From a virus (Duplodnaviria; Heunggongvirae; Uroviricota; Caudoviricetes): a stretch of DNA of 36,121 bases. Position 1 is the stretch's first letter, and each line of letters begins with the position of its first letter. This document shows positions 961 through 36,121 of the stretch, in pieces. The position numbers were made by a program, and so were the translations under genes. A model generated the notes under the pieces. That model was not told the origin of the DNA. It was given only the letters and a program-made list of their open reading frames with translations, and searched no databases. The DNA lies in IMG/VR virus record IMGVR_UViG_2778261180_000005, one strand, 5' to 3'.

Positions 961-1000
961 GCCCCTATCGTTATAATACGCGGTAGGGGCGTTTTTGTTT
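961..1000 (+). terminator. rho-independent terminator
   Basis: GCCCCTATCG / CGGTAGGGGC stem (one G.T pair), 10-nt loop, then TTTTT. The loop contains TATAAT (973-978). Confidence 0.7.
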
Positions 1001-1009
1001 GGAAATGGT

Positions 1010-2689
1010 ATGAAAACTAAACTGTATTCGTATATTCGCTTCTCGTCTATGAAGCAAGCGGATGGTAGTTCTTATGAACGCCAGAAGAGAACAGCCGCAG
1101 AGATAGCCGCAAAATATGATCTTGAGCTAGTTACAAGCTATCAGGATTTTGGTGTATCTGCATTCAAAGGGGCTAACAGTAGAACAGGTGCACTATCTCG
1201 CTTTCTGGATGAGATTGGTCGATCCGTTCCGGTTGGTAGCTGGCTGGTTGTGGAAAACTTAGACCGTATCTCTCGCCAATCCATCATTGAAGCACAAGAG
1301 CTATTTCTCTCGATTATCCGTAGGGGAATAACTATCGTAACTGGCATGGATGGTAAGGTCTATAGCAAGGAATCGGTTAATGCCAATCCTATTGATTTGC
1401 TGTTGAGTGTCATGTTGTTTGCGAGAGCTAACGAGGAAAGTCAGACTAAGCGCAATCGTACTAACTCAAGCGCATTGATTAAGATTAAAGCTCATCAAGA
1501 AAATCCACAAAATCCGGCTGTTGCAATCGAGGAAATTGGAAAGAATATGTGGTGGACTGATACCACATCTGGTTATGTGCTTCCTCATCCGGTCTTCTTC
1601 CCTATTGTTCAGGAAGTTGTGGAATTACGCAGGAATGGACGGTCAACCGCCGAGATACTGGATCACCTTAACGCGACATACACACCACCACCAGCCGCAA
1701 GTCACAAGAGGCATTCAAACTGGTCACGGGCAATGATTGAAAGGTTGTTCCATACCCGCGCTTTGATTGGTATCAAGGAAATCTCTGTAGATGGCGTTAA
1801 GTATGAGTTAAAGGATTATTATCCTCGTGTGCTAGATGACGCTGAGTTTTATCACCTTAAGAAAAGCATTGGTGTTAGAGCATGTAACTATGGAGACAAG
1901 GAAGAAGTTAAACCTATTCCCTTGCTTAGTGGTGTTGGTCTATTGAAATGTGAACATTGCGGTTCCGCTATGGTTAAGGTGAAAGGAACTAACAAACGTC
2001 CTAACCAATATCGTTATTCATGCGATGCAATGCGCTCTAGTCGTATTGCATGTGTGCATACAAACTGGAGTTTTCGAGGTGATCAATTAGAGAAAGCTGT
2101 ATTGCAATTGCTGGCTGATAAAATCTGGATTGCTGAGGATAAGGCTAATCCGGTTCCGGCTTTGAAAGTACAGATTGATGAAATATCACGCAAGATTGAT
2201 AACCTGATTACCCTTTCTGCTATGACAGGAGCAACGAAGGAGCTAGCCGATCAGATTACTACCCTCAATAGCGAGCGTGAAACACTCTACAATCAAATTA
2301 AGATGGCAGAAGAGGAAATGTATTCTGTTGACTCTCAAGGCTGGGAGAAGCTCGCAGAATTTGATTTAGAAGATGTTTACAACGAGGATCGCATTAAGGT
2401 CCGGTTTAAGATTAAGCAAGCTCTAAAACGGATCGGGTGTAGCAGGATTGACAAGTACAAAAACTTGTTTGTACTGGAATACATCGATGGCAAGACCCAG
2501 AGAGTTGTAATAGAAAATTCAAGAGGACCGAGGAAAGGCCGGATCTTCGTTGATTTGAAAACTATCAATGATAGACAGATTCTGGAAAGTAACGGGCTTG
2601 TTTTGCATCCATGTTTAGACATGCTGACAGATAAGAACTGGAAACCAGAAGAGGAAATACCAGGTCCATTACAGGAATTTGGAATTTAA
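1010..2689 (+). CDS. large serine recombinase (integrase-type), 559 aa from ATG 1010
   Basis: N-terminal resolvase-type catalytic domain (YSYIRFSSMKQ...SYERQ). Central recombinase domain. Zn-ribbon CEHCGS...YSCD...IACVH. C-terminal coiled coil. The track start at 995 is a TTG inside the terminator T-run, so ATG 1010 is preferred. Confidence 0.9.
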   Translation: MKTKLYSYIRFSSMKQADGSSYERQKRTAAEIAAKYDLELVTSYQDFGVSAFKGANSRTGALSRFLDEIGRSVPVGSWLVVENLDRISRQSIIEAQELFLSIIRRGITIVTGMDGKVYSKESVNANPIDLLLSVMLFARANEESQTKRNRTNSSALIKIKAHQENPQNPAVAIEEIGKNMWWTDTTSGYVLPHPVFFPIVQEVVELRRNGRSTAEILDHLNATYTPPPAASHKRHSNWSRAMIERLFHTRALIGIKEISVDGVKYELKDYYPRVLDDAEFYHLKKSIGVRACNYGDKEEVKPIPLLSGVGLLKCEHCGSAMVKVKGTNKRPNQYRYSCDAMRSSRIACVHTNWSFRGDQLEKAVLQLLADKIWIAEDKANPVPALKVQIDEISRKIDNLITLSAMTGATKELADQITTLNSERETLYNQIKMAEEEMYSVDSQGWEKLAEFDLEDVYNEDRIKVRFKIKQALKRIGCSRIDKYKNLFVLEYIDGKTQRVVIENSRGPRKGRIFVDLKTINDRQILESNGLVLHPCLDMLTDKNWKPEEEIPGPLQEFGI

Positions 2690-6909: not shown

Positions 6910-9900
6910 TTAAGAAACAGAAATACCCGTAGCGGCTTTCTTAGTAACAATTACAGAAAGATCGCTGATCCATGTGCTGGGAGTCCAGTTGTTGATTGCG
7001 CTTGAACTTACTTCAAAAGTTAGCGTAACTGGTCCGTGTCCGGCTGGCATATCAATAACAGCACTATACAATCCAGTCTGTCTACCATATGCACGGTTAT
7101 ATAATTCAGCACCGTTCTTGCGAACAATCAAGCGACAGTTATCATAGTAAGTATTGTTATTCGAGCCTTCACGCGCATTAAGACCACCAAAGCTAATAGC
7201 AGGAACGATAATCTGACGATCAAACGGGTGATCATCTTCAATTCGAACAGTGATTGTACCTTGCGGATAACCGGGATAGCCCAATGATGGGTTTTCGTCC
7301 CAATGTGGGAATCGACGACCAATAGCTTTCACGAAGTCACCACGCACCTGATTAGCATCAAGCATACCCAAAATGCGGCAACTTGAATTAATCGTTACGT
7401 TGTTCATTTCGCCGGAATCAGCCACCAAATGACCACGAATATTAGCGTGTCTAAAATGACAAGTGCCATCTTTGCCGATATACCATCCATCGTTACCATT
7501 CCAGTTATAAGACTGGATATAGTTACCAATTTTAGCATTATCGATAGAGCCATCAATAATATGACCTGTTCCGATCTGTGCGTGTTGGATGTGAGCGCCG
7601 TTAATCTGGGCTGTGCCGATCTTAGCCGTGGTAATAGCCGCATCACTAATCTGGGCTGTGCCAATTGCAGCATTACGAATCATCGCATTATCGAGATAAA
7701 CTTTGTTATCTTCGATGCCAAACGGACAAACTTCTGATCCGTCTTGTGGAGCTACCGCGATTTTATCAGCCGTAAAGATGATTCTCGTCGGTTCTGCCGG
7801 ATCATTGGTTGCGCTCATATGAATACCAGCCACGCGACCATCTGCATTAACTGCCAGATTATATTTGCTGTTAATGGTTCCCTTCAAAGCATCGATTTTT
7901 ACATCTGCTTCCTGATTCACACCAGCAATCTTGCCATCCATTTCTACCCGAACTTGATCAATCTTACTTGCGCTTGCTGCCTCACTGGTAGCAATTGCTT
8001 GTTTCAGGGTAGTAGCAGATGCGCTAACTTCATTGGTGATATCGCCTTTCAGTTCAGCTTTAACCTGATCAATCTTAGTGGAGCTAGCTTGCTCGCTGGT
8101 AGCAATCAGACTCTTTAAGGTATTGGCTGAGGCTTGGACCGTCTGCCCTGTTTCGGTAGTGATTTGCTTATGCATTGCATCAATTTTAGCATCGGCATTA
8201 GCGCCAGCTTGAGCAATAGCATCCGCGATAGTTTCATCTAAGCGGTCTTGTAAACCAATCAGGTCTTCCAGTGCTTCTTTGTCCTGATCGTCCCAACTAA
8301 TGGTAGATTTCATTTGCATGAAATACGGTTCAGACCAAACAGCATCATCCATACCGAAAATATCATAGTGAGCACCACGGATATAATAATCACCGTCAGC
8401 CAAATCAAAGGAAGTATGACTAACGCTATTGGTAGTCACTGCCCTTGCATCGGAGAAAGTATTATCGGTTGCATACTGAATGATTGACCCTGCATAGTCA
8501 TGTTCTACGTCATCCGCCCAGCTAACAAACGCAGTATTAAAGCCACCACGCGCACTAAAACCTTTCATTGGCTTATGCTGTGGGTTAATAGCCACTAAAC
8601 GCGCTGGGGCGCTCTCTGAGTTGTTATAGCCCTTAGCCGATACTTCTACCGTAAGTTGACGCGAAAGGCCGTTAAACTGGTTCATATCAAGCGTATAAGT
8701 CCATGATTCAGGATCGCGGGTACGGTACTGAATAGACTTACCAGCCTTGTTAGTTACCTTGATAATGTAGGCTTCAAACAGGTCACTAAACTTGTTAGTT
8801 TCACCGTTGATAACCACATCTAAGGCTTGCTGATTTTCCCATTCGATAATCAGATCATTGCCTTCGAAAGTACCAGGTGAGCTACCCTGATTTTTGATGC
8901 GGATCACTGGCGTAGGCAGTTCATAGGTAACTTCTGGATTCTGGTTAACCAGTTCCACCCATTCGGAACGAGCAATAATACCGAAAGCACAAACGCGGTA
9001 ATCGTAGGAACGATCTTTAGCCAGTGCATTGATATTGAAAATTTGCTGTGAAGTCTGTCCCAGCTTAATCCAGTTAGGTGATCCACTCACACGATAATCA
9101 ATCTGGAAACCGTAGCGGTTAAAATCTTCCGGTGCGTCCCATGTCAAAGTTACGTTTTTACCGTGGATTGTCTCACCAGTTGCCTTAATTCTGAAATTAG
9201 TCGGTTTCTGTACTGTCATTGAATCCGGTAAACCAGTCGGTCTATTGTCTGGAGTCGCCGCATAGTTCAGGTCAGTATAAACCTGAGAATTATATTCTGT
9301 GGCGGTGATAGTCATCATCCCAGCAATACCAGAATCAATCGAGCGATCAATTGCAGTAATACGCCATAAGGAATTATTCAGCTTCAATTCATCATAGGTT
9401 ACGCTGATAACATCCCAAACTTCGGCAGTGAATGCGTCAGTAGTCATAAAGCTGATAACCTGAGTGATACGAGATTTATTTCGCTCAATGCTCGCGAGTT
9501 TATCAATCTGGGTTTTAGACTTAACAAAACGATATTCAATATCTTTAGCGATAATTCGACCATCTTGACGAATAGTAGCATCGTTTTCAGCATCAGCCGG
9601 ATAACGGAGCATTTGCTCGGAATAGTCAATTGATGGTTCTTGATACATCGCGTTAATGGTATTGAAATAACCGTTAGTGCCACCTGTTTTCAGTGATACT
9701 TTTCCCATCATGATATTGTCTTCATTGAAGGTATGCTTAACAATATCAGGAGCATCCAGTTTCAGAGTAATACGTCCAAAGGATTCGAACATTACCCCGC
9801 CGAAAGTCTGCATAAGGCTAGTCAAGTTCTCTTTAAAGCTGGCGTTCGGATCACATGCACCGTTTGAATGCAAATCCATCTGGCGTACTTGCTTACGTAC

Positions 9901-15619: not shown

Positions 15620-16093
15620 TTAGACGACTTTCTGGAAAACAGCTTGTTTAACCGGAGCACCATCTACTACAAAGGTGAAGGTACGGCCTACTACAGCATC
15701 CTCACCACCAGTCATGGTAGTTTTAGACAGGAAGCCGTTATAAGCGATATGTACACCAGATTTTTTCGTAGCATCGATGTAGTAAGCAATTTTAAGCTGT
15801 ACGCGCTTACCGTCTTCGGTTGCTTTAATCAGTTTTTCGTGTACTTCGTTACCCGGCATGTAGTTGATCGAAAGTTCGATATCCGGTACAGACATACGAC
15901 CAACCAGCTTACGGTTATAAGCACCAGAGAAGTTAGGAACATCGATCGTAGAACGTTCTACACCAGTTTCCGGGAACGCTGCGCATTCTGGGATTTCCAG
16001 ATAGGTTTCAGCATCAAGGTCTTTATTGCTTACGTCTTCTTGCAGAAACAGACCAACGAGGCCACCAGAGAAAATATCAAATTTAGTAGTCAT
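15620..16093 (-). CDS. major tail tube protein (157 aa)
   Basis: Immediately upstream of the chaperone pair, optimised codons, strong terminator. Paralogous to the N-terminal half of the 277-aa protein. Confidence 0.8.
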   Translation of the reverse strand: MTTKFDIFSGGLVGLFLQEDVSNKDLDAETYLEIPECAAFPETGVERSTIDVPNFSGAYNRKLVGRMSVPDIELSINYMPGNEVHEKLIKATEDGKRVQLKIAYYIDATKKSGVHIAYNGFLSKTTMTGGEDAVVGRTFTFVVDGAPVKQAVFQKVV

Positions 16094-22425: not shown

Positions 22426-24405
22426 TCATTCGGAGATGTGAAGAACTTTCAGAGCTTCCGGCTGGGTTACAACATAGTCCAGATCTACCCAGATACGCGG
22501 AACGATAGCGGACTGTGCACGGTAGGTGGTGTCGTCCATATCCAGTTCCAGACCGCCCCACTCACCGATAGTAATACCGGAGAAGTCACCCAGAACGATG
22601 TGATCTGCCGGGATAACACCAGAAGTAACTACATCGTAACCAGCCAGTTTGCCGTTTTCGATGATATAACCGGAAACACCGTTATCTTTCAGGGTAGATT
22701 CCAGTTCAGCAGCAGTTGCACCGCTCATCGCAAACTTGATCGCCTGAGCAGGAACGCCAGCGTCGGTCAGTGCTGCAATTTCTTTCAGGAAGTCTTTGTA
22801 GCTGAAAGCGGCTTTCTTAGTAACACGGCTTGCATCAACCAGTTGTTTAACCAGACCAGCAGGACCGCGCTCATTGTCTTTGTCAGACAGAATCAGTTGT
22901 TCCAGTTTGATGCGAACAGCCTGGTTGATGTGATCAGTGATCAGGGTAGCGATACCCGGAACGGTTTTAATGCTCTGACGGCTGATCGGGTTGCCACCAG
23001 CAAAAGTCTTAGGAGACAGTTTCACGTTTGCAAATTCAGCTTTGCCTTCCGGTGCAGCACCGTTTTCATCAACGAAGCCGAAAGCGTCAACGCTGGATTT
23101 AGTCATTTTTGGAATAGCGGTCGGAGCAGTCAAGCCACTGTAAACAGTCACACCCAGACGACCCAGAACGGATTCCGGCATCAGCATTTCGATGTAGGAT
23201 TCAGTCAGCAGTTTTTCGTCGGTGATAGCAGTCAGGTCAGCTTTGGTGTTACCAGCAGCAGCAGCACGCATAGCAGCAGCAGGAACGAATACAGAGCCAC
23301 CACGAGCAGCACGACCACGCTGCATAGTTGCAGTAGCAGCCATTGCGGAATATTCAGCTTCATGAGCGCCGAGCACGTCGCCATCTACCAGGGAGCGGAT
23401 TACGTTATTAAGATCGAAAGTTTTTTCCATTTTAGAGTCCTTAATTTGTTGTTCGTTGTTACGTTGAGCAGTAGCGATTTTATTTAGTGCCTTAGTGCGG
23501 AATGCTTCCGGCGTCATGTCTTTAATTGCTAATGCGCGTTTCAATTCTTCGTCATCAATATTTAGTTCGCGTGCAATTTCGCGAATTTCTAATTCGTCTT
23601 CTTCGGAACGTTCAGCCACTTCTTCGATTTTTTCTTCTTCAATCGGAGCGGCTTCACGTTCTTCTTTTACTTCTTCTGCTTCCCGAACAGTTGAACTATC
23701 ATCATCAACACTTTCAGGATGTTCAGCGTCTTTTCCGTCTTCGAGATTTTCATCTTCTTTATTCTCTTCAACTTTCGGTTCTTTATTTTCTTCTACCGGA
23801 GTTTCTTCAACCTGAGCGGGTTCTTGTTCTTCTTTGATTTCTTCGATTTGTTCTTTAGTCATATCGCGTTTAGCCTCCAAATTAACTGTGATAGTATTTA
23901 GAGAGCGATTTAAACCGACCGTATCGTCAGCAGGAACTGTCACAAATGAAATTTCAAAGGGTGCCCACTTAGTAACAATCAATTGTCCTTTAGCGTAATC
24001 GATGTGATACTCTTTAATGTCATAGCCGACCGATATTTTTTCCATCGTACCTTCAATGACTTTATTACGAATATCATTAGCCAAAGTCCCATGCTTAGAG
24101 AATTTAACCAGAGCACGGCCTACGTTATCCGCATCGATTCGAGCGTTACAGACAACACCAATGTGATTATCGAAATTATGATTGAACAGCAACGGAGCGT
24201 TATTATTCAGGCGAGACAGATCAACCGCTTCCGGTGTATGTACCAGAATTTCATCTAATACCACCATTTCTTGATTTTGCTCATCCCAGAATTGGCGCTG
24301 GTAAGGCTGGGTACTGGAGAAAGCAATTTCAAATTCGTATTGATCGTTATGCCCTTCGTTAATAACTCCACCGTAACCGTTAAGATCGCGGCGAAATTTA
24401 AGCAT
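22426..24405 (-). CDS. prohead protease / major capsid protein fusion (659 aa)
   Basis: N-terminal ~170 aa are prohead-serine-protease-like (LLFNHNFDNHIGVV). An acidic E/K-rich linker follows. The C-terminal ~350 aa are HK97-fold capsid-like. Codon usage is strongly optimised. Confidence 0.85.
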   Translation of the reverse strand: MLKFRRDLNGYGGVINEGHNDQYEFEIAFSSTQPYQRQFWDEQNQEMVVLDEILVHTPEAVDLSRLNNNAPLLFNHNFDNHIGVVCNARIDADNVGRALVKFSKHGTLANDIRNKVIEGTMEKISVGYDIKEYHIDYAKGQLIVTKWAPFEISFVTVPADDTVGLNRSLNTITVNLEAKRDMTKEQIEEIKEEQEPAQVEETPVEENKEPKVEENKEDENLEDGKDAEHPESVDDDSSTVREAEEVKEEREAAPIEEEKIEEVAERSEEDELEIREIARELNIDDEELKRALAIKDMTPEAFRTKALNKIATAQRNNEQQIKDSKMEKTFDLNNVIRSLVDGDVLGAHEAEYSAMAATATMQRGRAARGGSVFVPAAAMRAAAAGNTKADLTAITDEKLLTESYIEMLMPESVLGRLGVTVYSGLTAPTAIPKMTKSSVDAFGFVDENGAAPEGKAEFANVKLSPKTFAGGNPISRQSIKTVPGIATLITDHINQAVRIKLEQLILSDKDNERGPAGLVKQLVDASRVTKKAAFSYKDFLKEIAALTDAGVPAQAIKFAMSGATAAELESTLKDNGVSGYIIENGKLAGYDVVTSGVIPADHIVLGDFSGITIGEWGGLELDMDDTTYRAQSAIVPRIWVDLDYVVTQPEALKVLHISE

Positions 24406-26539: not shown

Positions 26540-28444
26540 TTAGAACGATGTTACCCAACTACGGCCTCTATTTGGACGTCTGGCGATGTTTTTACGTTGT
26601 GGTCGTGTGATTGGCTTAGTTTCTTCGATTTTCTCGTCAGATTGCGATTTAGGAGCTTTTACGGGTTCTTCGACAACACGGTTTAAGCTGTCTTTCATTG
26701 CAATGAGTTTATCCCATGACATTTTTGAAAGGACGTAGCGAGAAGCCGCTGTAGCATACACGGCGCAGTCGAGCGCCTCGTTCCTAACGCCTGGGTTCTT
26801 TACCCATCTCACGCCAGTAGTAGTACGCTTGACAGATTCACTTAAAAGCTGATCGAGATAATCATCAGGAACGGTGTCTGATATTTCTAAGCCAATATGA
26901 GGATTATCTTTCAGGTTCCTAGCCAACATTTCACGAAATGCAGTTTTACCCACATTAACACCCAACATAAGCAATTCATGACCACCTGTGCGGGTAGGTT
27001 TAACCGGAATGATCGGAGCGTTACCAGCAGAACTACCTTTGATAGCGTGTAAGTTCTTCCACTTGCCGCAAATACGGTATCCAGCTTGAGTGAATCGACC
27101 GTTCGATGTATCAAGGAAGCTGGCGAGCATAGGAACACGATCACCCGATACAGTAGTAAATTTGGTTTTATGGAAGTTGATTAATCTATCCCATACAGGG
27201 GATTCATATCGTTCACAGTTATGATCGTAAAAGCTGCGATGATCCAGAATATAAATCTTATCCTTTGCCACGCCCATGATTGTAGTTTCTGCGCGATCTA
27301 ATTGCTGGTCGGTACCCGCACACAAGAAAATCACGTCATCAGGGATATTCTCGATAGAAACATCTGTTTTTAGTTGTTCCAGTTCATTTGCTTCTACTGC
27401 CGTGTCCTGATCGTCGTATACCTTGCCTAACACGGTGTTATAAAATGATTGTAAATCAAAGGATTGCCACGCATGGCTAAAATCAACCACACAAGCGCGG
27501 ATCGTGCTGAAAGGTGAATACAGACGGCTGATCCAGAATCCTGCTACCTCACTTTCACGGGTTGCTCTCCACTCGCCTTGTGCTACTGCCCTGATTCGTT
27601 CCCCTTCGGTCCATGCGTTCTTACAGTGGGGGCAAATATAACGAGCGGTATCAGGATCGGGTAAGTTCTTACCATCGATGTTACGCCATTCAAATTGAAC
27701 GTTTTCCCACTCGATCACCTGGTGTTCCCCGCAATGAGGACACGGAACAAAAAACATACGCATATCACTTGATAACCATTGCTGGTTAATGCTTCCGAGC
27801 TTACTGGTCGGGGTACTGGATACGACTAATCGGCCTTCATCGCCAAAGGTAGTTAAACGGTTAGCAGCCAGTGCCACCGGATCACCTTCTTCTGAGGCTG
27901 TAGCAGCATCGATTTCGTCAAGCAATCCAACCTTTGCGGTCTTACCGCGTAGGGTTGATGGACTAGTAAGCGATACCATATAAAGGAAGTGGTTTGATTT
28001 GAGCTGGAGCTGATTGTTGTTATTAACAGAATTGCGATCATTCTTGTCTGTAACCACGTCTTTTAATGCATCACATGCTTCGATAGACGGTCGGATCTTA
28101 CCCGCGAGATATTGAGACATTTCTTTAGCGGTTGATTGTCCGATAATCATATTGCATGGATCGTTAGCCATCTGGTTAAACAGGATACCGTTTAGGATGG
28201 TAGTTTTTCCGATCTGCGCACTGGTCATCAGTACATACTTTTTCTTATTCTCAAGGAAAGGAGCATCAATCATGCCTTTCTGGAATGACAGCAATTTAAC
28301 TTTATCCCCCGCTTGAGGACCATCTACCAGCACCATATTCGCTTCGCACCATTCAGAAGGAAGGAGTTTAGGCGGTGGCGTAATATATTTGGCTGCATTT
28401 TTGAGAATCTTTTTTAATTTGGCCTTATTAGAAATCAGTTTCAT
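26540..28444 (-). CDS. terminase large subunit, lambda gpA type (634 aa)
   Basis: Walker A SAQIGKTT, Walker [11 protein letters not shown], paired CxxC motifs (CPHCGEHQ ... CPHCKNAW). First gene of the late operon. SD GAGGGT. Confidence 0.95.
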
Positions 28445-30807: not shown

Positions 30808-31260
30808 TTACAGCATATCTAAGCCTTCATCGTAACCGTAGAAGCCATTCTGAGAAGAGAAGCAGATTGGTGCGTAGTCGTCGTCATCTTCGTCTTGTTC
30901 ATCGTGTTCTGGGGCTTCCTGAGCGGGTTGTTTACCATAATCAGCCATAATCTGGTCAAGATCGGCGATCCCATAGTAAGAGCCTAAATCAACGTCATAT
31001 TCACGAACATCAAACGGCAGGTCATCACGAACAATAATTGCCGGAATGTTGTTGTATTGTTCACGACCTTCATCAGTAAAGCAGTCTACGATCACCGTAG
31101 GGCGACCATTACGTTTAAGAGCATAGAAAGCAGTTGAGAAATTGGAGTCTTCGGAATGACGAATGATGTTATAACCACGATTAGCGAAAACATGCATCAT
31201 AGCCAGATTATCATCATGGTTCAGACCCAGAAGAATGAAAGGAGTTTTAGTATTGATCAT
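30808..31260 (-). CDS. hypothetical protein with highly acidic C-terminal tail (150 aa)
   Basis: SD AGAGGA. C-terminus EAPEHDEQDEDDDDYAPICF...YDEGLDML. No family recognised. Confidence 0.7.
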   Translation of the reverse strand: MINTKTPFILLGLNHDDNLAMMHVFANRGYNIIRHSEDSNFSTAFYALKRNGRPTVIVDCFTDEGREQYNNIPAIIVRDDLPFDVREYDVDLGSYYGIADLDQIMADYGKQPAQEAPEHDEQDEDDDDYAPICFSSQNGFYGYDEGLDML

Positions 31261-31356
31261 AGTGGAAATCCTCTAAAAGAAAGTGAATCAAAGTAAGTTC
31301 ACTATTATTTATAACGAGAAATTTTTGTCTAATTTGAAAGGAATTGGTATTCAGTC

Positions 31357-31858
31357 GGCTTCGCCTCCTTCATAGATTTTGATTAAATCATCATCAAAAC
31401 GAAGAAGTATCTTTAGAATATAAGAATCTTTCTTTTGGAGAAATAATAATCCGGAAGCAATTTAGCAACCGAAGGTTGCAATCCCGAAGGGATACCAATA
31501 CCTTTCATGATCATTAAAGTGATCTAGAATCATCTAGTAACCAGTTAACTACTATTATCTTCAAAGTGATTATTACTATCTTTCTAGAATCAGTTAGTAA
31601 CTAGTTTAAAATCCCTTTCAAGAAAATCCTTTCAGAAGTGATTCTCGATGCCACGCAGTGGCGTCGCAGACGTTTGAGAGTGAGCGAAGCGAGCGAGCAA
31701 ACTAGTTAATTCCTTCTAAGACCATCTAGTATCATCTAGTTTAAATTAGTGTTACTAGAAGTAATTGGTTAGCGCTTCGCGCAGTCGGGCTACGCCCTCC
31801 TAATATCTTTTTGGTTATTTGTTGTTTTTGGTTTTACACATGAGCGTAGCGAATGTGT
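31357..31858. repeat. cluster of G/C-clamped mini-hairpins with trinucleotide GNA (or complementary TNC) loops
   Basis: GGC-TTC-GCC 31357. GCAACC-GAA-GGTTGC 31465. ATCCC-GAA-GGGAT 31481. GATGCCAC-GCA-GTGGCGTC 31647. GC-GAA-GC 31684. GCGC-TTC-GCGC 31772. GGGC-TAC-GCCC 31787. ACACAT-ga(GC-GTA-GC)ga-ATGTGT 31836. Confidence 0.75.
31523..31606. repeat. two copies of a 24-bp CTAG-rich repeat exactly 60 bp apart
   Basis: TCTAGAATCATCTAGTAACCAGTT (31523-31546) and TCTAGAATCAGTTAGTAACTAGTT (31583-31606), 21/24 identical. Related CATCTAGT motifs at 31724-31740. Confidence 0.75.
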
Positions 31859-31890: not shown

Positions 31891-32133
31891 TTTTGCCCCT
31901 CACTAAGTTAATGTTTTATAAAGAGTTTTTCTCACCAATCCTTTTCGGGGGCAAATTTCAGGGGCAAAAATTAGATTTTCAGGGGCAATTATTGGCATTT
32001 CAGGGGCAAAAATGAGGGGCAAAATCACTGTTTCCCAGAATTTCAGGGGCAAAAATAGTGGGTTTCAGGGGCAAAAATGGGATAGTGAAATCTAGGGGAT
32101 TTTGGTTCAGGGGCAAAATTCAGGGGCAAATTT
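31891..32133. repeat. iteron array: nine direct copies of (T)TTCAGGGGCAAA(A) plus one inverted copy
   Basis: GGGGCAA cores start at 31948, 31961, 31982, 32003, 32016, 32046, 32068, 32110 and 32123. The inverted copy is at 31893-31899. Confidence 0.9.
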
Positions 32134-32135
32134 CA

Positions 32136-32185
32136 TAGTGTAGGGCTAGTGTAGGTTTGAAAATCCTTTGTTGACACTGTGTAGG
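32136..32185. promoter_or_regulatory. three GTGTAGG operator-like repeats around the promoter
   Basis: TAGTGTAGG at 32136-32144 and 32147-32155. TGTGTAGG at 32178-32185, inside the -35/-10 spacer. Confidence 0.6.
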
Positions 32186-32199
32186 ATCGGTGGTATACT
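32171..32199 (+). promoter_or_regulatory. near-consensus sigma70 promoter with extended -10
   Basis: TTGACA (32171-32176), 17-nt spacer, TGgTATACT (32191-32199). Confidence 0.8.
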
Positions 32200-32465
32200 T
32201 GAAAATTCGAGATAAATATGTTATAATATTTGTATTGAAAGTGAAAATTTACCGATTTTCCTTCCTATTGTTATCACTGTGTTAAATTGTTATATGTCTG
32301 TGAAGATTTGGATCTGAGAGAAAATCTTGTAACAAATCTTTACAATTCATAGCTCAATTAATGCTCACCGCTTTAGCAAAAAGTGCTATGCCTTTTTCTA
32401 AATTGATTGAATAAACATCAATTTGGTTAATTCGTGTTCTTCTCTTTAGCAATTCGTGCTGCGGT

Positions 32466-32512
32466 TTAACACATTTAACACGCCTGATAACATCCAAATA
32501 ACATTTTAACAT
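32466..32512. repeat. five phased (T/A)TAACA(C/T) repeats in AT-rich DNA
   Basis: TTAACAC at 32466 and 32475. ATAACAT at 32487 and 32498. TTAACAT at 32506. Spacing is 8-12 bp. Confidence 0.5.
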
Positions 32513-32591
32513 ATCTCTGTTCTAAATACATATATAAGAGATAAATGTGAGGGGTTGAAAAATTAAAAACAATCCCCATATAAATAATAGT

Positions 32592-32612
32592 GAGCGGTTA
32601 ACGCTCTTTTTT
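32592..32612 (+). terminator. short terminator/attenuator at the end of the untranslated leader
   Basis: GAGCG-GTTAA-CGCTC followed by TTTTTT. Lies 35 nt before the start of the 60-aa HTH gene. Confidence 0.55.
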
Positions 32613-32647
32613 AAGAAATCATTAATCCAGATTTAGGAGGATTCAAG

Positions 32648-32830: not shown

Positions 32831-32872
32831 TACTTTGACTGAGAATTATATGATGGCTTTAAAAATAAAAAA

Positions 32873-32900
32873 GCCCCCTTGCGGCAACAAGGAGGCTTTT
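32873..32900 (+). terminator. terminator-like hairpin
   Basis: GCCCCCTTG-6nt-CAAGGAGGC (one mismatch) followed by TTTT. Confidence 0.6.
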
Positions 32901-32942
32901 GCGATGAACAATTAAAACTAACTTTCCACAGGAGTATTTATA

Positions 32943-33884
32943 ATGTTATTTTCCGCTAACTTTTTCACTAACGAAGTAACCAACGCTAAAGCAGTTATCA
33001 AATTTGGCACCGAAGCAAACAAGAAGATTCAGCCGAAAGTTGTTGCTCATGTTTCCTTTGCGCAGCAGAAATCCGCTTTCGCTGGCTTTAAAGCACATCG
33101 TGAAGCACTGATCGCGGCTGGCTTTGGTGTTGACGGTAAACTGCCTAACGGCATTCGTAAAGCAATCGACCGCGTTAAACCTGCTAAAGACGTTGCAGTA
33201 GACCACATCGTTACTTTTACCGTTAAGAACTCTTCTGAACTGTTCCACCTGGTTATTGCTGGTGATACTGCTATCGTTTCCGCTCCTAACATGGATTTTC
33301 AGGATACCGCTGATTGCCAGATCACCTTCGGTCGTCGTAAAGAAGTTACCGGAAAAGCTAAACTGAACTTCACTAAATCCGGCAATCCTTACTTTGCTGT
33401 TTTCTTTAACAGCCACGCTACCGAAAAAGAAGTTGTAGAACTGGTTGCTTATGAAGGTGAAGAGAAAGAACGTATTGAATCTTGCGAAGCATTTCTGGAA
33501 CTGGAAGCACAGGTGAATGCTGTTTCTCCGGTTGTTGAAGATCGCTTTGCTGCACTGGAAGCACAGATCGCAGAACTGAAAGCTGCACTGGAAGAAAAAG
33601 ACCAGATTATCGAAGCACAGAAAGCTGAGATTGAAGAACTGAAAGCTAAAGAAGTTGCTCCGGTAGCAGTAGTTGAAAACGCGGCTGATGAGGCCGCAAA
33701 TGATGAAGTAGAAGTGAAAATCGATGTGATGCGTGATCCGATGGCTGCACTGCAATTACTTCGTTCTTTTAAGGGCAAATCTCATTTTTCTAGTGATGTA
33801 GAAGATGAGGAAGAAGAACAGAAACGCAATGCTGCAATGCTTCATGATGAAATGTACGGTACTAACTTTTCTTACTGCCAATAA
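32943..33884 (+). CDS. abundant-expression-type protein of unknown function (313 aa): globular N-domain, coiled coil, acidic C-terminus
   Basis: SD AGGAG. Codon choice is dominated by E. coli high-expression codons (CTG, GAA, AAA, CGT, GGT, GCT). Coiled coil FAALEAQIAELKAALEEKDQIIEAQKAEIEELKAK. Confidence 0.85.
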   Translation: MLFSANFFTNEVTNAKAVIKFGTEANKKIQPKVVAHVSFAQQKSAFAGFKAHREALIAAGFGVDGKLPNGIRKAIDRVKPAKDVAVDHIVTFTVKNSSELFHLVIAGDTAIVSAPNMDFQDTADCQITFGRRKEVTGKAKLNFTKSGNPYFAVFFNSHATEKEVVELVAYEGEEKERIESCEAFLELEAQVNAVSPVVEDRFAALEAQIAELKAALEEKDQIIEAQKAEIEELKAKEVAPVAVVENAADEAANDEVEVKIDVMRDPMAALQLLRSFKGKSHFSSDVEDEEEEQKRNAAMLHDEMYGTNFSYCQ

Positions 33885-33906
33885 AAAAGGGACTCCGAAG
33901 AGTCCC
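33883..33906. terminator. hairpin terminator (T-run on the minus strand only)
   Basis: GGGACTC-CGAA-GAGTCCC, preceded on the plus strand by AAAAAA. Confidence 0.55.
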
Positions 33907-33983
33907 TAGTAAGTTTAGGTTAGGTTTTGCACAACAAAGATGAGGTTATAATGAACATAATGCTACATTATTCTTTAAAGCCA

Positions 33984-34010
33984 GAAAAATAACCGCCCCC
34001 TTCGGGGCGG
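33984..34010 (-). terminator. rho-independent terminator after the 94-aa membrane protein gene
   Basis: Minus strand reads CCGCCCC-GAAG-GGGGCGG followed by TTATTTTT. Confidence 0.7.
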
Positions 34011-34168
34011 GAGGATTAATACTCAATCTATACTTGTTATGTTTTTATGTTGTATAGTCACTGACTATGAAAACACTGTACTGAATGTGTTTTATGGCTT
34101 TTAATCGGGAACTCTCTTTCGAAAATTCCCTGTTAAAACCACATAAGGAGAAAAGGCAGATTACAATA

Positions 34169-34453
34169 TTATTTAGTCTGTTTGAAAACAAACGTTAAAA
34201 ATTCGATTAAGCAATATACCCAAAGTACGGTCAGCATCAAATGCATAGCAATAGTTGGATGGAAGTTAAAAAGTGTCATACTAACTAGGCCAACAATATA
34301 AGAAATCCCTTCGACAATTAACGCAAGGCTAGCAAATGCAACAAACGCACCTAAGAATAATTCGCCTCGTTCTTTCGGTTCGGTTCCGAGTTTATAAGCA
34401 GAGATAGCAGCCAGAATAGTAATGATGACAGCATAGGTAATAAAAGTAGCCAT
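34169..34453 (-). CDS. integral membrane protein (94 aa, 3-4 predicted TM helices)
   Basis: Hydrophobic throughout. SD AAGAGGA. Directly downstream of the Nu1-like gene. Confidence 0.7.
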   Translation of the reverse strand: MATFITYAVIITILAAISAYKLGTEPKERGELFLGAFVAFASLALIVEGISYIVGLVSMTLFNFHPTIAMHLMLTVLWVYCLIEFLTFVFKQTK

Positions 34454-34498: not shown

Positions 34499-34547
34499 TA
34501 GACGTTGACCCGTTCAACATCTTTCTCACTATTATTTATAACGCGTT

Positions 34548-35105
34548 TTAAGACACATCAAATTCATCGTCTTCTTCTGGTTCTTGTTCTTCCGGTTCAT
34601 CCATTAATGGTAATTCTTCTTCCTCGTCTTCTCCCAAATCTGCATTTTCGAACAAGTCCCCTACTTCATTTAAACGACGCTCGATAATCTCCCTTAGCTT
34701 ATTCTTTAATGTTTTCTGGTCAGTGGCAGATTCGAGAATTTCTAAAGCGTCGATTGTGGCGATCTGCAAAATAGTCTGCTTCACTTTCCCGCAGTATTCC
34801 GCTAGCTCCTGCTCCACATAACCGACGGGAATCAGGAGATTCATTTTTTCCTGGTTCTCTCGTTCGATGGCGTCCGCTAATGCTCTTTCTCTGCGGAGAC
34901 GTTCTTGATCAATCGCTTCTTTGATTGAAGTTTGTTTAAGTGGGTTAATTACGTTCTTTAGCACCCAATCGCAACCTTCCTTTGCTGGTACACGACGCGT
35001 GTGGGTGTTCATCGGTAGTCCCCTTTCTAACCATCGCTTACCGCCACCATTCAATGTATAGCCATATAAACGGGAAATTTCTGTAAGGGTTAATTCTTCT
35101 TTCAT
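34548..35105 (-). CDS. putative terminase small subunit, Nu1-like winged-HTH protein (185 aa)
   Basis: The N-terminus LTLTEISRLYGYTLNGGGKRWLERGLPM...VPAKEGCDWV parallels lambda Nu1 (KKQLADIFGASIRTIQNWQEQGMPV...). Coiled-coil middle, acidic tail. SD GGAGGA. Confidence 0.55.
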   Translation of the reverse strand: MKEELTLTEISRLYGYTLNGGGKRWLERGLPMNTHTRRVPAKEGCDWVLKNVINPLKQTSIKEAIDQERLRRERALADAIERENQEKMNLLIPVGYVEQELAEYCGKVKQTILQIATIDALEILESATDQKTLKNKLREIIERRLNEVGDLFENADLGEDEEEELPLMDEPEEQEPEEDDEFDVS

Positions 35106-35770: not shown

Positions 35771-36121
35771 TTATTGGGGTTTACAACATTTAGGTTTGCC
35801 AATTCGCCTGGCTAACTCTTGCTGAGTGATTTCTGACTGTAAAAAAGCATTTAACAGCAATACTTTAGAGGCGACGCTCAAAGGTACTTCAATAAAGTGA
35901 TCATGACTATTTAATGGCGAAGGTAACGGGATAAGCTCGTTATCTTCAAAATAAAAATCAAATGCGGTCAGTAAAGCATCTTTTGCCGCTTCCATCGCTT
36001 CAGCGACAGTTTCGCCCTGCGTCAACGCTTCAGGGATATCCACAAAAGAAACCATATAACCGCCTTCCGGCGCGGGTGTAAGAGTGACGGGATAACGCAT
36101 AATTTCGACTGTCTCTCGCAT
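35771..36121 (-). pseudogene. hicB: hicB antitoxin gene truncated by the phage insertion (HicB residues 1-104 plus 5 phage-encoded codons CCKPQ)
   Basis: MRYPVTLTPAPEGGYMVSFVDIPEALTQGETVAEAMEAAKDALLTAFDFYFEDNELIPLPSPLNSHDHFIEVPLSVASKVLLLNAFLQSEITQQELARRIGKPK matches E. coli HicB as I recall it. The native protein continues QEITRLFN...; here it continues CCKPQ-stop. Confidence 0.85.

Follow-up and report, generated by a model that had tools for sequence, protein, structure and literature searches.

A codon-adapted cassette gene coupled to a control-region repeat array in an Escherichia coli prophage: a putative iteron- or operator-array-binding control protein on an unrecognised fold

Introduction

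What is the function of a phage protein that belongs to no recognised family and is yet encoded by the most host-adapted codons of its genome? This question is raised by a 313-amino-acid (aa) open reading frame (ORF) at 32943..33884 on the plus strand of IMG/VR virus record IMGVR_UViG_2778261180_000005, a stretch of 36,121 nucleotides of Caudoviricetes DNA that was analysed as a whole and is hereafter called the window. The window consists almost wholly of one complete-looking prophage of ~35 kb inside Escherichia coli hicB (truncated hicB at 35771-36121), integrated via a large serine recombinase (gene 995..2689), and its relatives are integrated in ycdX. An initial annotation, made from the sequence alone, described the ORF as a heavily codon-optimised accessory-island gene and proposed host takeover, anti-defence, exclusion or a replication/segregation scaffold as its candidate roles. 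Here we present evidence that the gene is one allele of a conserved cassette that is exchanged in concert with a repeat array in the phage control region, and we weigh which site-specific role this coupling is likely to reflect.

Results

Codon usage and selection

The gene and the elements overlapping or adjoining it are as follows.

32943..33884, plus strand: 313-aa gene starting with ATG; N1 allele with a type-A C-terminus (types defined below), the tail ending in ...DVEDEEEEQKRNAAMLHDEMYGTNFSYCQ
32930-32934, plus strand: Shine-Dalgarno sequence AGGAG, 8 nt before the ATG and inside the conserved GGAGTATTTATA(A)ATG, which is the left boundary of the swapped segment
32946..33755, minus strand: antisense ORF that runs for 269 codons without a stop, in phase with the sense gene

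The codon adaptation index (CAI) was calculated for all 38 ORFs of the window with the weights of the Sharp & Li E. coli set. The 313-aa gene ranked first with 0.645, followed by the tube-like gene at 15620..16093 (0.613) and the capsid gene at 22426..24405 (0.517). The initial annotation had judged the bias exceptional by eye, apart from the capsid and tube genes; the calculation bears this out and places the gene above both of them. The AGGAG sequence and the codon choices that it had named were also found (CTG 13/17, GAA 32/36, AAA 23/27, CGT 7/10, GCT 24/45 and ATC 9/15). When the same protein was recoded with phage-wide codon usage (n = 2000), CAI was 0.391 ± 0.024 with a maximum of 0.481, and 27 host genes flanking the prophage in strain PI7 gave a mean of 0.29 and a maximum of 0.41, showing that the high CAI is not an effect of composition. 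Judged from codon usage, the 313-aa protein would be highly abundant.

The plus frame is a real gene under purifying selection, with a ratio of nonsynonymous to synonymous polymorphism (pN/pS) of 0.03–0.15 among 13 equal-length E. coli alleles (16 distinct alleles overall). The antisense ORF is an artefact, as already suspected in the initial annotation: in-phase antisense stops require TTA, CTA or TCA in the sense strand, and the sense gene avoids these codons: CTA and TCA are absent, and TTA is used just twice, at codons 2 and 272, which mark precisely the limits of the antisense ORF.

The N-domain type is exchanged together with the repeat array

Viral and metagenome contigs were searched for the conserved 60-aa gene, which is invariably found ahead of the cassette, and cassette variants were recovered in this way. 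The slot behind this gene is occupied by different proteins of the same size and architecture, which fall into three N-domain types, N1 being that of the window, and the slot was kept in every relative found, including those with proteins just 34–50% identical. The N2 proteins (MKNSKRITFN...) have 331–342 aa at full length and a CAI of 0.68–0.70, and N3 is represented by two tandem 333-aa genes in locus L038, the first of which has 337 aa in L039 and L052 (CAI 0.56 for N3a and 0.38). Good to very strong codon adaptation, with a CAI of 0.56–0.72, is found in all three types. In blastn comparisons, shared flanks stopped at the start codon (32942/3) and resumed at the stop codon (33880). The hairpin upstream of the cassette and GGAGTATTTATA are common to nearly all loci; N3 loci keep the hairpin and have another ribosome-binding sequence.

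The further elements concerned in this comparison are as follows.

31892..32130, plus strand: array of ten copies of TCAGGGGCAAA = T(C/G)(A/G)GGGGCAA(A/T), putatively bound by the N1 domain
Within 32136-32144, within 32147-32155 and at 32179-32185, plus strand: three GTGTAGG motifs, the unit of the N2-type array
33880-34177: conserved right flank of the swapped segment

The array lies directly upstream of two tandem promoters and 0.8–1 kb upstream of the 313-aa gene. Nine direct copies start at 31945, 31958, 31979, 32000, 32013, 32043, 32065, 32107 and 32120, with spacings of 13, 21, 21, 13, 30, 22, 42 and 13 bp, and one inverted copy occupies 31892-31902. These ten matches compare with 0.54 expected by chance, and the rest of the 36 kb window contains none.

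Across the variants, the array changed with the N-domain. N1 loci carry 5–8 exact copies of GGGGCAAA upstream, N2 loci carry 6–9 copies of GTGTAGG and zero GGGGCAAA, and N3 loci carry 13 copies of CGGGGA and neither of the other two units, so that array type and N-domain type were concordant in 56 out of 56 loci. On the other hand, the ~0.8 kb between array and cassette has been reshuffled among three leader types and five subtypes of the 60-aa protein (Ha–He): all three N types are found with leader Ld2, and both N1 and N2 with Ld1; among the subtypes of the 60-aa protein, Ha and Hc each accompany N1 or N2, and Hb accompanies N1 or N3. For instance, L025 (N2) and L038 (N3) have a near-identical leader but differ in both array and cassette. 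The pairing of array and N-domain has thus survived recombination around both, which is expected of a DNA site and the domain that reads it. From this comparison, the 313-aa gene is one allele of a conserved specificity cassette coupled to the control-region repeat array.

Two apparent hybrid N-domains in E. coli genomes turned out to be remnants truncated by insertion sequences. Of the three GTGTAGG motifs in the window, the third (32179-32185) sits in the −35/−10 spacer of the first promoter; the occurrence of this N2-type unit at an N1 promoter hints at cross-regulation between the types or at a remnant of array replacement. Another N1 locus, L053, has no GTGTAGG copies.

Domain layout, charge and family searches

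The 313-aa protein was modelled with AlphaFold2, which divided it as follows (all on the plus strand).

Residues 1-156 (nt 32943-33410): N-domain, with a predicted local distance difference test (pLDDT) score of ~70–86 over residues 20-150
Residues 157-181: linker helices
Residues 182-236 (nt 33486-33650): coiled-coil helix, a single long helix in the model
Residues 237-313: acidic tail, modelled at low confidence

The pLDDT was 61 for the full-length protein and worse (57.5) for the N-domain alone. At this confidence, the N-domain is predicted to be a beta-rich barrel, without a classic DNA-binding fold. The charge is strongly divided: the N half of the window protein has an isoelectric point (pI) of 9.6–9.75 and the C half one of 4.3, and more generally N-domain pI is 9.5–9.8 in N1 (three members, 34–50% identical) and N2, with a C-half pI of 4.1–5.3.

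Searches of Pfam (E ≤ 1), PHROGs, NCBIfam and PADLOC with the protein, its alleles and ten neighbours gave nothing beyond coiled-coil noise, and a sequence search of the PDB with the protein gave no match. Neither tblastn against INPHARED phages and PLSDB plasmids, nor the 1.5-kb locus against 50,697 phage records, nor a scan of one genome per species returned a relative. A word-index protein search found near-identical E. coli copies only, and the same 1.5-kb query matched 63 of 5426 complete E. coli genomes, so that ~1% of these carry the prophage lineage. An exhaustive HMMER scan of 1.84 billion representative proteins yielded 12 hits, just two of which are genuine distant relatives over their full length: P0124 (305 aa, 50% identical) and P0128 (344 aa, 34%); the same 60-aa gene precedes both, and the P0124 gene is the most codon-adapted of its locus (CAI 0.724). 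Two giant repeat proteins among the hits (P0130 and P0132) were judged spurious. The protein accessions and the prophage are nowhere mentioned in the literature. The layout of a globular N-domain, a coiled coil and an acidic C-terminal region, the missing family, and the position on the strand opposite to the structural genes behind strong, evidently regulated promoters (32171-32227) had all been noted in the initial annotation, and all three hold.

Exchangeable C-terminal modules and a possible link to ClpX

The C-terminal part assorts independently of the N type. In E. coli, N1 is joined either to a type-A tail (...AMLHDEMYGTNFSYCQ), as in the window, or to a type-B domain of ~65 aa (...WNKYLVKKNG...VRKAA), which is also present in P0124 and P0128; a search with the type-B module found a single fragment. 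The N2 tail (...MALHDAIYDTNYSAYAYAA) is type-A-like by eye, a likeness not significant by BLASTP, and a motif LHDxxYxTN(F/Y)S common to N1 and N2 is likewise visible by eye only. In the metagenomic allele P0131, from the same locus (downstream DNA 97% identical to that of the window), the DNA-binding domain ORF6N stands in place of the N-domain and is joined to type B at the coiled coil.

ClpX acts on phage and plasmid proteins such as lambda O, MuA and TrfA. Every cassette allele that ends in -AA (YAYAA, VRKAA, VRRAA or DFAA) is followed by a small coiled-coil partner protein ending in (K/R)PTLR(I/L/V)VA or GLRLVA (L025 7311-7553, L018 10930-11163, L017 10981-11352, L038 7314-8315 and L020 838-999). 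The partner family has no members outside this prophage lineage. In L040, the C-terminal AY repeat is expanded to YAYAYAYAYAYAA. These endings resemble the SspB/ssrA system, in which the ssrA tag ends in ...YALAA and the C-terminal segment of SspB tethers SspB to the ClpX N domain (PMC9963277); E. coli SspB itself ends in ...RGGRPALRVVK (8et3_Y). The resemblance is confined to a terminal motif of 7–8 residues, the partner, unlike SspB, has no substrate-binding domain, and the window allele has neither feature. That most alleles carry a ClpXP degron and are served by a mini-adaptor is thus put forward as a testable idea from the sequences.

Control region and neighbouring genes

The remaining features around the cassette are as follows.

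32171..32227, plus strand: two tandem sigma-70 promoters, TTGACA-17-TATACT and TTGAAA-17-TATAAT, each with 11/12 consensus positions and a TG extension
32228..32647, plus strand: A+T-rich leader of ~400 nt, ending with the 15-mer TATAAATAATAGTGA and a terminator/attenuator before the 60-aa gene
32592-32612, plus strand: intrinsic terminator/attenuator GAGCGGTTAACGCTC with a T-run; hairpin and T-run are kept in L018 and L019
32648..32830, plus strand: basic 60-aa gene, MARPVKFTRE...GIDQSTFHKLLKKY
32869..32900: hairpin AAAAGCCCCCTTGCGGCAACAAGGAGGCTTTT between the 60-aa gene and the cassette, present in 7 of 7 variants aligned
33907-33888 and 34010-33993, minus strand: two intrinsic terminators, placed to shield the cassette from antisense transcription out of the 94-aa and Nu1-like genes

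The 60-aa protein looks helix-turn-helix-like by eye, and PHROG-, Pfam- and NCBIfam-type scans of the neighbours gave it no family match. The hairpin AAAAGCCCCCTTGCGGCAACAAGGAGGCTTTT reads as a minus-strand terminator, that strand alone having a conserved T-run; in mRNA from the plus strand, the hairpin would fold into a stem-loop that precedes the start codon by ~40 nt. The leader also contains a basic 52-aa ORF on the minus strand (32354-32512), with one amino-acid change in L051, which could be a small regulator or a chance ORF.

The 15-mer TATAAATAATAGTGA occurs exactly three times, at 31299-31313 (minus), 32579-32593 (plus) and 34526-34540 (minus), where ~2.4 occurrences would be expected even allowing three mismatches. 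All three copies precede a gene start, and two of them are followed by a hairpin with a T-run, a ribosome-binding site and ATG; weaker copies precede the Rha, integrase and 101-aa genes. It could be a phage-specific promoter or an antitermination signal. The noncoding block at 31335-31800, kept in all cassette variants, contains, besides several GC-rich hairpins (loops UUCG, UACG or GAA), four TCTAGAATCATCTAGTAAC-like repeats and repeats of AAT(A/C)CCTTTC, and could represent structured RNA, a cos region or priming signals. An Rfam scan over 28.4-36.1 kb gave nothing above noise, and GC skew carried no informative signal.

The prophage encodes a lambda-type large terminase, a portal, a protease-capsid fusion, a siphovirus-type tail, an endolysin and a Rha-type regulator. 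The capsid protein of the closest isolated phage is only 44% identical, and the lineage has no cultured relative. A Nu1-like small-terminase candidate (34548..35105, minus strand; phrog_57, E 2.9e-9) and terL (26540..28444, minus strand) stand ~6 kb apart with the whole control region and the cassette between them, so that the packaging genes are split in an unusual manner. The leftward operon begins with a gene (30808-31260, minus strand) for a 150-aa protein without a family match in the same scans, with a strongly acidic tail EHDEQDEDDDDY...GYDEGLDML; it has the fourth-highest CAI in the window (0.476; 0.601 for the L018 homologue), is kept in all cassette variants, and could either interact with the cassette protein as its partner or be a DNA mimic. 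Recognisable excision-factor and antitermination genes are also missing from the prophage.

Two double lysogens were noted. Strain BS74R-D (NZ_CP063332.1; L062 and L063) carries two differing prophages in ycdX and hicB whose N1 proteins and 60-aa proteins are identical, suggesting gene conversion, and UTME-9 (NZ_CP157110.1; L059) carries an N1 prophage together with an N2 prophage in ycdX.

Discussion

Origin recognition as the favoured role

The co-variation described above makes it probable that the N-domain reads the array, that the coiled coil builds a multi-subunit complex on the ~ten sites, and that the C-terminus docks a partner. The basic N-terminal domain would recognise the GGGGCAAA repeats, the coiled coil would join the subunits so that the sites are filled cooperatively in one large nucleoprotein complex, and the acidic C-terminal module would offer the docking surface. 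Consistent with such a reader of the array are the swap boundaries at the start and stop codons, the confinement of the array motif to one place in the window, the basic N-domains of N1 and N2 and the exchange of the N-domain for ORF6N in P0131. Going one step further, we tentatively propose, at a probability of roughly 35%, that the 313-aa protein is the origin-recognition protein of the phage, the specificity factor for its own upstream array. It would then correspond in function to lambda O or plasmid Rep and recruit the host replication machinery. In a lytic burst, thousands of initiator subunits would be made within minutes, free of copy-number restraint, and many genome copies would be initiated; in most alleles, the protein would be rapidly turned over by ClpXP. 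DNA binding, oligomerisation, abundance and the role in replication are all inferred here from comparative sequence evidence.

Four considerations lead us to favour origin recognition. First, the phage must replicate, yet no other candidate for this function is recognisable: Pfam, PHROGs, NCBIfam and PADLOC scans of the whole prophage detected no repressor, initiator, helicase, helicase loader, primase or polymerase, which would leave the cassette protein as the sole origin-recognition candidate in an otherwise host-dependent genome. Second, direct repeats phased at 21–22 bp, an A+T-rich transcribed stretch and the gene together reproduce the layout of an iteron replicon. Third, an N-terminal specificity half with an exchangeable C-terminal partner half mirrors lambda O, in which the N half is specific for ori and the C half for the partner. 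Fourth, L018, which is integrated in ycdX, has three perfect DnaA boxes (TTATCCACA) within ~170 bp (9692-9859), carried by an insertion that separates the 60-aa gene from the cassette.

The protein thus resembles lambda O and the iteron Rep proteins (P1 RepA, R6K pi, pSC101 RepA) in its size of ~300 aa, in an N-terminal specificity that co-varies with direct repeats adjoining an A+T-rich transcribed region (here the putative origin), in its exchangeable C-terminal part for partner docking and in the possible link to ClpX-type turnover. It differs from them in several respects. No sequence or profile match to Phage_rep_O or lambda O was obtained (Pfam at E ≤ 1, PHROGs, NCBIfam), and the window protein has neither the tandem winged-helix fold nor a profile match of Rep_3, its N-domain being predicted beta-rich. 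Moreover, the array lies outside the gene, 0.8 kb upstream, with the leader and the 60-aa gene in between, and the codon adaptation is extreme.

Several observations weigh against origin recognition. The co-variation spans only three types, and hence few independent events, so that it amounts to strong circumstantial evidence and not to proof. Homology of N1 with N2 and N3 is undetectable (hhalign probability 0.2%, and no significant BLASTP match between N1 and N2), whereas N2 and N3a are weakly similar (E 0.002); a common function across the alleles is therefore argued from position and architecture. The N3 N-domains are non-basic (pI ~6.2), and the window allele ends in NFSYCQ, with no AA ending and no downstream partner gene. 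The array stands upstream of promoters, a placement equally typical of a transcription regulator, and DnaA boxes were found neither in the control region of the window nor in variants other than L018. Finally, known initiators are usually scarce and autoregulated and are not the most codon-adapted gene of a genome.

Immunity repression and other alternatives

The main rival to origin recognition is an immunity repressor or silencer, which we hold to be possible but doubtful. Such a protein would be made continuously in the lysogen from the strong promoters, would nucleate on the array, oligomerise and spread or loop, and would thereby shut down the lytic operon that runs leftward from a promoter near 31300, and perhaps its own operon as well; the three pairs of N-domain and array would be three immunity groups. 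It would explain the coupling of array and N-domain equally well, since immunity regions are classically recognised by the joint exchange of a specificity domain and its sites between temperate phages that are otherwise alike, and constant expression in the lysogen would account for a CAI higher than that of the capsid gene. Like the integrase, the gene is on the minority strand, no CI-like repressor was found elsewhere in the prophage, the array adjoins promoters, and the coexistence of N1 and N2 prophages in UTME-9 would fit different immunity groups. A labile AA-ended protein with an SspB-like partner could serve as an induction switch. However, the repeats are direct and phased at 21–22 bp, they stop ~40 bp upstream of the −35 element instead of covering the promoter, and there are none near the leftward promoter. 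The identical N1 and 60-aa proteins in the two prophages of BS74R-D would also be unexpected for a strict immunity determinant, although gene conversion could explain them, and a partner in the same operon that delivers the repressor to ClpXP would be self-defeating. The evidence that separates the origin and repressor readings is thus thin and mixed.

A variant of immunity control would give the protein an antirepressor-like or activator role. P0131 carries the antirepressor-type ORF6N in place of the N-domain, and antirepressors of the ORF6N, KilA-N, Bro-N and Rha kind share the combination of an exchangeable N module, a coiled coil and an exchangeable C module; the arrangement of a strong promoter, a leader and a small ORF also recalls the P1 immI operon c4-icd-ant. 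The N1 domain is, however, outside those families, with no ORF6N, KilA-N, Bro-N, Rha or ANT domain in the window protein, P0124 or P0128, no antisense-RNA family was found in the leader by Rfam, and antirepressors bind repressor proteins and not a cognate repeat array.

It is improbable that the cassette encodes an abundant effector that does not bind the array at all, whether for anti-defence, exclusion, host takeover, single-stranded-DNA binding, or decoration or fibre formation on the virion, so that its association with the array would be historical linkage. Very high CAI is typical of stoichiometric proteins; the high-expression signature, basic core and acidic C-terminal tail recall phage single-stranded-DNA-binding proteins (SSBs) such as T7 gp2.5 and T4 gp32, and a G-poor unstructured leader behind an upstream stem-loop is also found in the gene 32 translational operator. 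In addition, fibre proteins likewise join a conserved N-terminus to C-terminal modules that can be exchanged, arms-race genes are typically diverse in their alleles, and the predicted beta-barrel is no classic DNA-binding fold. Mere linkage should nevertheless have been broken by the reshuffling of leader and 60-aa gene, yet all 56 loci were concordant, and SSBs are not sequence-specific, so that no co-variation with an array is expected of them. Nor did any defence, SSB, structural or decoration match go past coiled-coil noise: no OB fold or SSB appeared in Pfam or PDB sequence searches or among structural matches of the moderate-confidence model, matches to scaffold, decoration or fibre families were weak and confined to coiled coils (phrog_530, E 0.009; Phage_scaffold, E 0.099 with the N2 allele), and among PADLOC defence models only LmuB matched (E 0.0038, over the coiled coil), the neighbouring genes giving none. 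The gene is outside the late operon, on the other strand, in a phage whose capsid gene already carries a fused protease.

The weakest alternative, another site-recognition role as a small-terminase-like selector of a cos or pac packaging site or as a KfrA/ParR-type centromere-binding protein or genome organiser, appears very unlikely, since the phage has a separate Nu1-like small-terminase candidate, has no partition NTPase gene in the region and integrates via a serine recombinase, and since the gene is opposite to the strand of the packaging operon, 4.5 kb from terL and behind early-type promoters, with no terminase, KfrA, ParB or ParR profile match (Pfam, PHROGs). What speaks for it is the architecture, since small terminases and KfrA likewise combine a DNA-recognition N-domain with a coiled coil and a docking tail (KfrA, of ~300 aa, binds DNA through its N-terminal part and has a long coiled coil), as well as the location between the Nu1-like gene and terL and the adjoining hairpin-rich block (31335-31800) as a possible cos. 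Many close direct repeats upstream of the own operon promoter are likewise known from R1 ParR/parC, omega, StbA and RK2 KfrA, where they are bound cooperatively, but KfrA has a long alanine-rich coil where this protein has an acidic tail. Both this and the effector role are less likely than origin recognition or repression.

Implications

The view of the gene as a dispensable member of an accessory island, serving host takeover, anti-defence or exclusion, is not supported by these data: the slot is present in every relative with the same 60-aa gene, hairpin and ribosome-binding sequence upstream, the N-domain co-varies with an array in the phage control region, and PADLOC detected no defence relative. 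Among the roles originally suggested, a replication/segregation scaffold is the one that agrees with the direction of the evidence. An iteron- or operator-array-binding control protein on an unrecognised fold is the description that the sequences suggest. A bolder proposal, which we think unlikely, is that it founds an undescribed class of phage control protein, abundant and with a novel N-domain reading a private array of ~ten repeats, tied in most alleles to a ClpXP circuit, and acting as the single origin/immunity specificity switch of a temperate lineage without conventional repressor or replication genes.

The cassette and the array look like the key specificity pair of this lineage. If this is true, the lineage would provide three orthogonal pairs of protein and DNA site, possibly with a new DNA-recognition fold, a possible natural phage-encoded ClpX adaptor/degron pair, and an entry to replication and the upkeep of lysogeny in seemingly gene-poor temperate phages. 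It would also show that a phage gene of extreme codon adaptation can encode, as predicted here, a factor that binds DNA at specific sites and not a structural protein.

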